A stretch of DNA of 64,000 nt, from positions 3,556 to 67,555 of the forward strand of contig CALWGY010000002.1 in NCBI GenBank assembly GCA_944380265.1. Reading direction: 5' to 3'. The position numbers were made by a program, and so were the translations under genes. Numbering within the stretch: position 1 is the first letter of the stretch; each line of letters starts with the position of its first letter. The notes beneath the pieces were generated by a model, which saw only the letters and a list, made by a program, of their open reading frames with translations, did not search any database and had not been told where the DNA came from. Source of the stretch: an uncultured Clostridia bacterium. GTDB lineage: Bacteria; Bacillota; Clostridia; Christensenellales; UBA1242. This document shows positions 8,228 to 8,439 of this stretch, in pieces.

Positions 8228-8260
8228 GCGGAACGGCACGCAGGCTTGTTGCCGTTCCGC
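8228..8260 (+). other. GC-rich hairpin (terminator-like, or a candidate complementary-strand origin or packaging element)
   Basis: 11-bp stem gcggaacggca / tgccgttccgc with an 11-nt loop, followed by ttgtttttt. It is strikingly GC-rich for this DNA. The duplicate is at 16790..16822. Confidence 0.4.
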
Positions 8261-8291
8261 TTGTTTTTTGCCTTGCAAGGTCAATGGTCAG

Positions 8292-8439
8292 TTTACCACA
8301 TTACCACATTTTATGTGGAAATGCTGGAAAACTTTGGAAATGTGGAAAAAGCACAGCATAGAAGAATTAATGCTTTTACCACATTATCACATTGACTGGA
8401 AAAGTGGAAAAATCTTTGATTTTACACACTTTACCACAA
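8292..8439. repeat. iteron field: TTACCACA(T) / (A)TGTGGAAA repeats in both orientations
   Basis: TTTACCACAT at 8292, TTACCACAT at 8301, ATGTGGAAA at 8313 (forming the palindrome CCACAT-ttt-ATGTGG), ATGTGGAAAAA at 8340, TTTACCACAT at 8375, TATCACAT at 8385, AGTGGAAAAA at 8403, TTTACACAC at 8421, TTTACCACAA at 8430. The duplicate is at 16854..17001. Confidence 0.65.

Follow-up and report, generated by a model that had tools for sequence, protein, structure and literature searches.

The subject of this study is a repeat-rich intergenic region (8228-8442) beside the replication gene of a mobile element in a 64,000-nucleotide stretch of DNA (the window; contig CALWGY010000002.1, positions 3,556 to 67,555) from an uncultured Clostridia bacterium. 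The element is integrated and tandemly duplicated, as follows from an 8,562-bp duplication, tRNA-Ser att repeats and an integrase. On balance, we favour a joint reading in which it is an 8.56-kb inovirus-like prophage replicating by the rolling-circle route with a CRESS-type Rep, and in which 8228-8442 would be its complementary-strand (minus-strand) origin region, or single-strand origin (sso), portable between replicons and read by host factors.

The whole feature sits in a 372-bp gap between the stop codon of a gene for a 138-amino-acid (138-aa) protein (8442) and the start of rep (8069). All long open reading frames (ORFs) of the element are on the minus strand of the window, and along this gene-sense strand the repeat field, a GC-rich hairpin, the nick hairpin, the GTAACAT iterons and rep follow one another in that order. 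The rep product (7095-8069, minus strand) combines a CRESS-type HUH endonuclease (PF02407, 5.5e-11) with a superfamily-3 helicase (PF00910, 4.6e-07); its TINN, HxQ and YCxK motifs and its Walker A box are invariant across 37 homologues, its nearest named relatives are those of the 'bajarodino viruses' of rodent faeces (33-37% identity) and RepA of a Bifidobacterium plasmid, and more than 1,000 homologues occur in metagenomes. A Zot/pI-like ATPase is encoded at 8862-9707 (phrog_197 match). The Rep nick hairpin (8160-8199, minus strand) has a 15-bp stem and exposes A-TAGTATTAC in its loop (8175-8183); TAGTATTAC is the canonical CRESS nick motif and, from known CRESS-type Reps, we place the nick between 8177 and 8176. 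Over this hairpin and the proximal iterons (8146-8194, minus strand) the Rfam family RF03070 'ssNA-helicase' scores 40.1 bits, just under its gathering score of 41.5 (E = 9e-6). The catalogued motif, which covers neither the field nor the GC hairpin, is probably the double-strand origin of this family of CRESS-Rep elements.

The original prediction had described a GC-rich hairpin followed by a field packed with short repeats in both orientations, and as a description this holds. The arms of the GC hairpin (8228-8238 and 8250-8260, 11 nt each) are 100% complementary around an 11-nt loop, TTACCACA/TGTGGAAA-type repeats crowd 8290-8439, the palindrome CCACAT-ttt-ATGTGG lies at 8304-8318, and the field repeats are indeed distinct from the GTAACAT repeats beside rep. 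Counted on both strands at no more than one mismatch, TTACCACA occurs seven times in 8293-8438 (at 8293, 8301, 8314 (-), 8341 (-), 8376, 8384 and 8431), as against about 0.27 expected per 146 bp from the 120 matches in the 64 kb. The claimed minimum of nine copies is therefore reached only when the degenerate copies GCTGGAAA, TTTGGAAA, CTGGAAAA, AGTGGAAA and TTTACACAC are admitted, which brings the total to about 12. The repeats are not iterons in the sense of independent sites; they form inverted pairs, that is, the arms of hairpins. The 71-aa ORF across the field (8268-8483, plus strand), already dismissed as repeats read as protein, is spurious: it is antisense to all genes of the element and has no Pfam match, the open stretches of relatives lie in different frames, and its frame is broken or shifted in the related loci L004 and L280, so that a conserved antisense small protein was rejected.

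Computational folding of the minus strand as single-stranded DNA (ssDNA), which had been proposed as a check, turned the field into a closed domain of three hairpins (8270-8442, minus strand) that starts at the stop codon of the upstream 138-aa gene; the fold of 8155-8450 reaches -74.1 kcal/mol (z = -11.7). In the sense-strand reading, the outer stem P0 pairs GCCTTG (8437-8442) with CAAGGC (8270-8275), closes the domain and encloses hairpin 1 (hp1), while stem P1, recognized both as an inverted repeat and in the fold, pairs GTCAATG (8390-8396) with CATTGAC (8280-8286) and encloses hp2 and hp3. The core portable module is hp1 (8397-8436), with the 5' arm TGGTAAAGTGTGTAAAATC, the loop AAA and the 3' arm GATTTTTCCACTTTTCCA, made irregular by T:T mismatches at 8424/8408 and 8433/8400 and by one bulged T. 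The second hairpin, hp2 (8335-8389, core 8339-8385), consists of ATGTGGTAAAAGCA, a variable 17-nt loop and TGCTTTTTCCACAT, with a T:T mismatch at 8378/8346, and the third, hp3 (8290-8333), is made of GTTTTCCAGCATTTCCACAT, the loop AAA and ATGTGGTAATGTGGTAAAC and holds the palindrome; all of these are on the minus strand. Both the GC hairpin and the three-hairpin domain recur in the other tandem unit, displaced by 8562 (16790-17004, minus strand; covariance-model matches at 16958-17000 and 16896-16953). In Rfam, neither the field nor the GC hairpin has a matching family, and nothing credible was found over 8228-8442.

Relatives with the same gene order and a Rep 50-70% identical to that of the window (L007/L008, L009-L012, L127, L128, L276, L004 and L280) keep the field nearly base for base; lack of conservation in related elements had been named beforehand as the outcome that would point to drift. 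L007 folds into the same topology (z = -10), and the folding z-scores range overall from -9 to -12. The stem sequence of hp2 is conserved and its loop variable in L007, L009, L127, L128 and L276, and hp3 has been swapped in L007 and L009 for a different hairpin with TTATGCACA or TTATACACA. The apical stem of hp1 occurs as AATC/GATT, ACTC/GAGT, ACTT/AAGT and AGTC/GACT, P0 as GCCTTG/CAAGGC (window), GTGTTG/CAACAC (L007), TTGGTG/CACCAA (L009) and GCGTTG/CAACGC (L280), and P1 is maintained through compensatory and G:T changes (alignment columns 54-61 with 168-174). Compensatory changes affect 6 of the 16 hp1 pairs in an alignment of 9 sequences and 8 of 16 in one of 11 sequences from four lineages, with 96.6-98.6% of cells paired; none of 500 shuffles reached the score in either alignment, and slid controls collapsed. 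For the whole field, RNAalifold predicted 47 pairs, of which 17 are compensatory. Such covariation in stems is, read from the alignments, the signature of a folded single strand and not of duplex binding sites.

This covariation bears most directly on the alternative that the field is an array of sites bound as duplex, whether a DnaA-box cluster or operator at the rep promoter, a means of coupling to the host cell cycle, a sink that titrates DnaA, or an operator or centromere for a small element-encoded repressor. The abundance of short repeats that point both ways and lie 8-11 bp apart, the roughly tenfold enrichment of DnaA-box-like nonamers and the likeness of the 5' arm TG(n)GTAAAnT to an extended -10, with a promoter-like site at 8410-8383 (minus strand), would suit such an array, and in T5-like phages ordered DnaA boxes lie within inverted repeats for which a non-replicative purpose has been proposed (bioRxiv 10.1101/866236). 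However, it leaves unexplained both the compensatory stem changes, by which variable positions co-vary and preserve pairing, and the covariation of P0 and P1, which contain no box; moreover, forward and reverse copies differ systematically (GTGGTAA versus GTGGAAA), a distinction for which a duplex binder has no need. We hence consider this explanation unlikely. The promoter candidate at 8410-8383 was rejected, not being conserved in L007 or L009.

Several measures favour the sense strand as the one that folds, although single-sequence energies do not separate the two. The consensus fold reaches -28.2 kcal/mol for the sense strand, compared with -20.9 for the antisense one; in the sense reading, the cells that depart from Watson-Crick pairing comprise ten G:T and a single A:C, numbers that the antisense reading inverts; and the hp1 covariance model scores 69 bits on the minus strand versus 24 on the plus strand. 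The same model, which never saw hp2 in training, finds hp2 with 39.4 bits (-) versus 16.6 (+) in the window, and finds it on the sense strand in every relative. For HUH/CRESS Reps, the strand bearing the nick motif is the one that is nicked, displaced and packaged; the sense strand, which carries TAGTATTAC, would accordingly have this role.

The sense strand is also the transcribed one, and a transcript running from the morphogenesis genes toward rep would fold into the same hairpins, which could then determine the level of rep expression through RNA processing, stability or attenuation. In each of the four lineages in which we found them (see below), the hairpins closely precede rep on the strand that is transcribed, and G:U-compatible substitutions are enriched on the gene-sense strand. 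Nevertheless, they are not intrinsic terminators, given that they lack a following U-tract, and a terminator scan flags none here; no Rfam family matches the field; the conserved DnaA-box-like stem and the fixed T:T mismatch have no obvious rationale in RNA; and what the carriers have in common is an ssDNA stage, whereas their gene orders and Rep families differ. We therefore give an RNA element a low probability.

That the field is a second cis-element, apart from the Rep iterons, is supported by relatives in which the iterons go from GTAACAT to GTCGCAT and the field stays: in L007 and L009 the sequence of the field is unchanged beside GTCGCAT iterons, and thus, unlike Rep iterons, its repeats do not change with Rep specificity. 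The field, moreover, accompanies unrelated Rep families. A BLAST search of the field against 50,697 phage records matched non-coding DNA of Microviridae sp. MG945688.1 (yak faeces), where the strand of all its genes holds a tandem pair of hairpins (AAGTGGTAAAGTC-aac-GACTTTTCCACTT), both of which show the T:T mismatch. Further carriers were recovered with patterns in which the invariant columns were fixed and any base was allowed at the covarying ones, and subsequently with the covariance model and BLAST. A 4,908-nt IMG/VR contig (L282), with an F-type capsid, a pilot protein and a PF23343 Rep, has hairpins at 2320-2525, and Gokushovirus WZ-2015a (KT264833.1) has them at 2418-2461 and 2554-2597 in the VP2-VP4 gap; the Microviridae carriers thus comprise three genomes in two groups, with F-type capsid genes. 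At least nine other contigs (L283-L295, e.g., the 7,777-nt L295) encode a PF23343 gpII/G2P-type Rep and an SLT-domain protein and have a single hairpin, between a small gene and rep. Together, the carriers represent four lineages and three kinds of rolling-circle initiator (CRESS-Rep, microvirus VP4 and gpII/G2P-type). In every one of them the hairpin is non-coding and upstream of rep, and the higher-scoring strand is the gene-sense strand.

The hp1 covariance model had no match in about 70 other Rep-related loci; relatives with a Rep of about 60% identity and the same gene order (L129, L130 and L277) have unrelated hairpin-rich DNA in the same position, as do the more distant Rep relatives L001, L006, L047 and L048. 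A BLAST search against PLSDB plasmids gave only weak matches in coding regions of enterobacterial plasmids, which we judged to be chance, and hence no related sso at this sensitivity. The loose IMG/VR patterns GTGGTAAA-N5-30-TTTTCCAC and GTGGTAAAG-N3-20-CTTTTCCAC returned almost exclusively chance hits lacking hairpin complementarity, a scan specific for hp2 found no match, and locus searches with single proteins recovered few relatives. Additional hairpins were also seen. In L282 (2290-2420, plus strand) one core hairpin is nested in a longer hairpin of the same motif (CTGTTGGAACGGTGTTAAACTCAG ... CTGAGTTTTGCACGGTTTCAACAG), its box being TTTTGCAC with a G:T wobble at the 'N'. The IMG/VR prophage contigs L189 (48 kb, 1201-1232, minus strand) and L210 (68 kb, 9823-9854, plus strand) contain CCTGTAGTGGTAAATCC-ggtcct-GGATTTTCCACTACAGG, perfect save for the same T:T in GTGGTAAA/TTTTCCAC, at weak model scores of 18-19 bits.

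The range of carriers also bears on who reads the hairpins. A comparison by tblastx of the element with MG945688.1 revealed no credible protein similarity, and thus no shared candidate hairpin-binding protein, and the remaining carriers have different gene sets by family annotation. The idea that the element's small basic proteins or Rep bind the field is therefore not sustained, as the same hairpin occurs in microviruses and gpII-type elements with other genes; for the same reason an element-encoded binder of duplex sites is improbable. A second candidate function, a filamentous packaging signal, would make the field a virion-strand hairpin recognized by the assembly machinery, like hairpin A of the Ff phages. 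The order of morphogenesis genes, hairpins, nick hairpin and rep parallels the Ff intergenic region, and the element possesses the Zot/pI-like ATPase; the GC hairpin, whose loop is invariant while its stems vary, might be such a signal. As regards the repeat field, however, the three Microviridae genomes speak against it: with an F capsid and a pilot protein they package into icosahedral procapsids and have no filamentous assembly genes. In L004 and L280 the gene order is otherwise the same, yet the GC hairpin is missing. We regard packaging through the field as very unlikely.

In the core hairpin, the 3' arm TTTT(C/G)CAC (TTTTCCAC(A/T)) pairs with the 5'-arm GTGGTAAA, except for a T:T mismatch at its fourth base that is invariant in 11 of 11 distinct hairpins from the four lineages (8408/8424 and 8346/8378 in the window). 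By virtue of this mismatch the TTTT of the 3' arm can coexist with TAAAnT on the 5' arm, the latter being a -10-like hexamer with TG before it, and from their sequences both arms look constrained, the 3' arm as a DnaA-box-like motif and the 5' arm as TG(n)GTAAAnT. The relaxed DnaA-box consensus is TT(A/T)TNCACA (Schaper and Messer, as quoted in bioRxiv 10.1101/866236); TTTT(C/G)CAC agrees with TTWTNCACA at eight of nine positions, and the sole variable internal position of the box in the 11 hairpins, C or G, coincides with the N of the consensus. An exact relaxed match, TTTTCCACA, lies in the 3' arm of hp2 (8341-8349), that is, in a hairpin stem as in the 'A site' discussed below, and near-matches are found in the 3' arm of hp1 (TTTTCCACT, 8403-8411) and in hp3 (ATTTCCACA, 8314-8322), all on the minus strand. 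In each relative the field holds 6-7 nonamers that differ from TTATCCACA at no more than two positions, versus about 0.6 expected (p < 0.0005). L004 has a perfect TGTGGATAA together with TTATCCAAA and TTATCCATA, and the exchanged hp3 of L007 and L009 has the box-like TTATGCACA and TTATACACA. By analogy, DnaA may be the reader of the fixed duplex motif, a suggestion that we make tentatively.

The -10-like 5' arm raises the question of whether the same origin function might instead be served by RNA polymerase, with the folded DNA acting as a promoter mimic on which the primer is made, as in ssoA, Frpo or M13. RNA-polymerase-dependent ssos are the commonest kind in Gram-positive rolling-circle plasmids (PMC4595007). 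Here, the invariant 5'-arm bases (TG, then T, A, A, A, n, T) retain the three most important -10 positions, and the T:T mismatch is what permits TAAAnT on one arm together with TTTT on the other. In ssoA, the CS-6 hexamer TAGCGT/A stands in a terminal loop; this hallmark is absent from the sense strand of 8070-8450. Moreover, no -35 element occurs at a fixed distance, and in the predicted fold the -10-like hexamer abuts a 3-nt apical loop, which leaves no downstream template in normal promoter geometry. Hence, a polymerase-read origin appears to us quite unlikely.

The GC hairpin (8228-8260, minus strand) has an 11-bp stem and an 11-nt loop, ACAAGCCTGCG, which in the sense orientation carries the motif AGCCTGCG at 8239-8246; as ssDNA it folds with -14.3 kcal/mol (z = -4.8). 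In the window, L007, L009, L127, L128 and L002 the stems are unrelated in sequence, yet all fold and the loop AGCCTGCG is invariant; this was judged from the fold of each sequence, as differing stem-to-loop distances preclude a column-wise test. The hairpin is absent from L004 and L280, where the field is present, and from the microviruses, and it is present in L002, where the field is absent. Since its presence is uncoupled from that of the field, it is an independent module, which might mark where a primer starts or stops, serve as a second origin or be the packaging signal considered above. Two other candidates were discarded: an intrinsic terminator on the plus strand, as the T-run after the hairpin is not conserved in relatives and the loop is, and an attP for the integrase, as the att repeats lie elsewhere (4352-4376 and 23072-23096) and the stems differ between elements. 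In the 5579-6000 intergenic region of L127, TAGCGT, which we take to be the ssoA CS-6 consensus, stands beside the AGCCTGCG loop, and L128 has TAAGCGT there; this may be coincidence.

Of the three functions offered for the region by the original prediction (a complementary-strand origin, a packaging signal and an operator array), the first is thus best favoured by the evidence. What the analysis shows is a set of covarying hairpins, the strand on which they preferentially fold, their placement with respect to the nick and their portability. The field lies 93-265 nt 5' of the presumed nick on the nicked strand, and field and GC hairpin together span 51-265 nt, between the stop codon (8442-8444) and the nick hairpin. 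As expected of an sso, whose definition and priming routes in plasmids and integrative and conjugative elements (ICEs) have been described (PMC4595007), the region is non-coding, is situated just 5' of the nick on the displaced strand, shows extensive intrastrand pairing under selection (z = -11.7; 8/16 pairs in hp1 and 17/47 in the field compensatory) and is distributed like a cassette, independently of Rep type. Because the region is non-coding, folds on the displaced strand 5' of the nick, is selected for both pairing and a fixed sequence, and undergoes cassette exchange, we infer a complementary-strand function and a host factor that serves it. What is common to carriers with different Reps, capsids and assembly routes is a virion or displaced single strand that needs conversion by the host, and this likewise leads to an origin.

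We envisage the following course of events. Rep would nick TAGTATT/AC in the hairpin at 8160-8199 (minus strand), and the minus strand would be displaced and later packaged as ssDNA. Being immediately 5' of the nick, the field would be the last part to become single-stranded, and would then fold into the closed three-hairpin domain (8270-8442), which may resist melting by single-strand-binding protein (SSB). The domain would present the short duplex TTTT(C/G)CAC:GTGGTAAA with its obligatory T:T mismatch, which a host replication protein would recognize, nucleating the priming of the complementary strand. The favoured factor is DnaA, after which helicase and primase could be loaded in the way known from the 'A site' of the E. 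coli ABC primosome, and the GC hairpin (loop AGCCTGCG) may be a second, independently exchangeable signal in the region.

Several points weigh against this interpretation. The origin function is deduced from sequence and fold analysis of these elements. The single-sequence folding energies are nearly equal for the two DNA strands (-74.1 versus -73.7 kcal/mol), an RNA of the sense strand would form the same hairpins, and the wobble pairs (G:U) are no less compatible with RNA than with DNA. The agreement in orientation amounts to only three extra independent lineages, with a chance of about 1 in 8, and the module is rare, having been found in a single sub-clade of the Rep family and in few other phages. 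As for DnaA, the comparison was chosen after the motif had been seen; strict TTWTNCACA occurs just twice per field in the window, which overall has 16 occurrences for 28 expected and thus no enrichment; position 9 of the box is not conserved, with T, A or G instead of A; the 5'-arm copies TTTACCACA break the conserved T4; and DnaA sites are not known to contain a mismatch such as the invariant T:T.

Among known systems, the closest in conception is the ABC primosome's 'A site', whose hairpin bears a single DnaA box and enables DnaA to load DnaB and primase on SSB-coated ssDNA (PMC6127211); the site belongs to E. coli plasmids such as R6K and was tested in M13 derivatives (Masai et al., 1990; Masai and Arai, 1995, described in PMC6127211). 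The two have in common an ssDNA hairpin with a DnaA-box-type nonamer in its stem; here, too, few boxes would suffice and the hairpin would permit host-only priming of an SSB-coated circle. They differ in that the carriers here are natural ssDNA phages and prophages of gut Bacillota and not enterobacterial plasmids, in the two or three hairpins joined in a closed junction, in the motif TTTT(C/G)CAC with its variable position 9 and invariant T:T at position 4, and in that loading in Bacillota would need DnaD, DnaB and DnaI should the candidate binding of DnaA take place. The Gram-positive ssos (ssoA, ssoU, ssoT, ssoW and sso1 of ICEBs1; PMC4595007) resemble the region in being non-coding, self-paired and upstream of the double-strand origin; they are also orientation-specific, are exchanged as cassettes among Reps, and can adjoin in pairs. 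Unlike them, the module has no sequence similarity found in PLSDB and no ssoA CS-6 motif, and its carriers are phages, not plasmids.

The intergenic region of the Ff phages (M13/f1/fd), with the packaging hairpin A, the minus-strand origin B + C and the plus-strand origin D + E, is likewise built of hairpins, and the same order of functions would be expected between morphogenesis and replication genes on the virion strand. However, the module has no similarity to any inovirus in the phage collection, the Rep here is CRESS-type and not gpII, and Ff employs RNA polymerase on a promoter mimic. The PriA (n') site of the microvirus phiX174 and the primase origin of phage G4 are also host-only hairpin priming signals on the virion strand, whereas the hairpins described here have a different sequence, probably a different host factor, and carriers that are not microviruses. 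Since Rfam gave no match, PLSDB held no plasmid sso resembling it and we found no paper on it, the sequence and structure family appears undescribed, the functional kind being already known.

The wider setting of the element is that of a low-GC Bacillota-type chromosome with the standard genetic code, in which a T-box leader and a tRNA-Ser are present. The tandem duplication is formed by 4367-12412 and 12929-20974 (99.96% identity, period 8,562 bp), and the array is flanked by an exact 25-bp repeat of the 3' end of tRNA-Ser (4352-4376 and 23072-23096), the tRNA-Ser itself lying at 23074-23161 (minus strand) and the tyrosine integrase at 21671-22993 (plus strand). The 8,562-bp unit is thus present twice and the integrase once; as the nick-to-nick distance is exactly one unit, a unit-length ssDNA circle from the tandem array, as for CTXphi, would be without the integrase. 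Between the junction (12696-12934) and a segment next to the integrase gene (21262-21507) the identity is 74%, and an XRE-like gene is suggested there by reading of the sequence alone. Outside the att site, a 1,038-aa protein (682-3798, plus strand) combines a PLD/NgoFVII-like nuclease, a ResIII/SNF2 helicase and DUF3427; its gene, preceded by a NUDIX hydrolase gene (251-679, plus strand), looks like a defence gene adjoining the integration hotspot. In the relative L280, which has the field, a PemK-family toxin gene (7254-7592) follows rep in place of the two large genes (413- and 368-aa type) of the window. The T-box leader (RF00230, 105 bits; 50501-50700, minus strand), upstream of the ORF at 49194-50441, belongs to ordinary host regulation.

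To our knowledge, the start of the complementary strand has not been defined in gokushoviruses or in Gram-positive filamentous-type phages, and the textbook complementary-strand origins (M13, phiX174 and G4) all come from E. coli. A short hairpin module common to several unrelated ssDNA phages is therefore a concrete and easily tested origin candidate, and its covariance model is a tool with which to search metagenomes for such origins. We speculate, with considerable reserve, that TG(n)GTAAAnT-loop-AnTTTT(C/G)CAC may define an undescribed, horizontally exchanged and DnaA-read class of origins in gut microviruses, inovirus-like prophages and other rolling-circle elements. If so, it would be the natural phage counterpart of the artificial 'A-site' system, it would imply in Bacillota a DnaA-dependent loading of helicase (DnaD, DnaB, DnaI) on ssDNA outside oriC, and the T:T mismatch would make the site readable only in the folded single strand. 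Reading of the module by DnaA would, moreover, tie the conversion of phage ssDNA to the host initiator, and the module could act as a determinant of host range or as a part for ssDNA-producing vectors in gut Bacillota.

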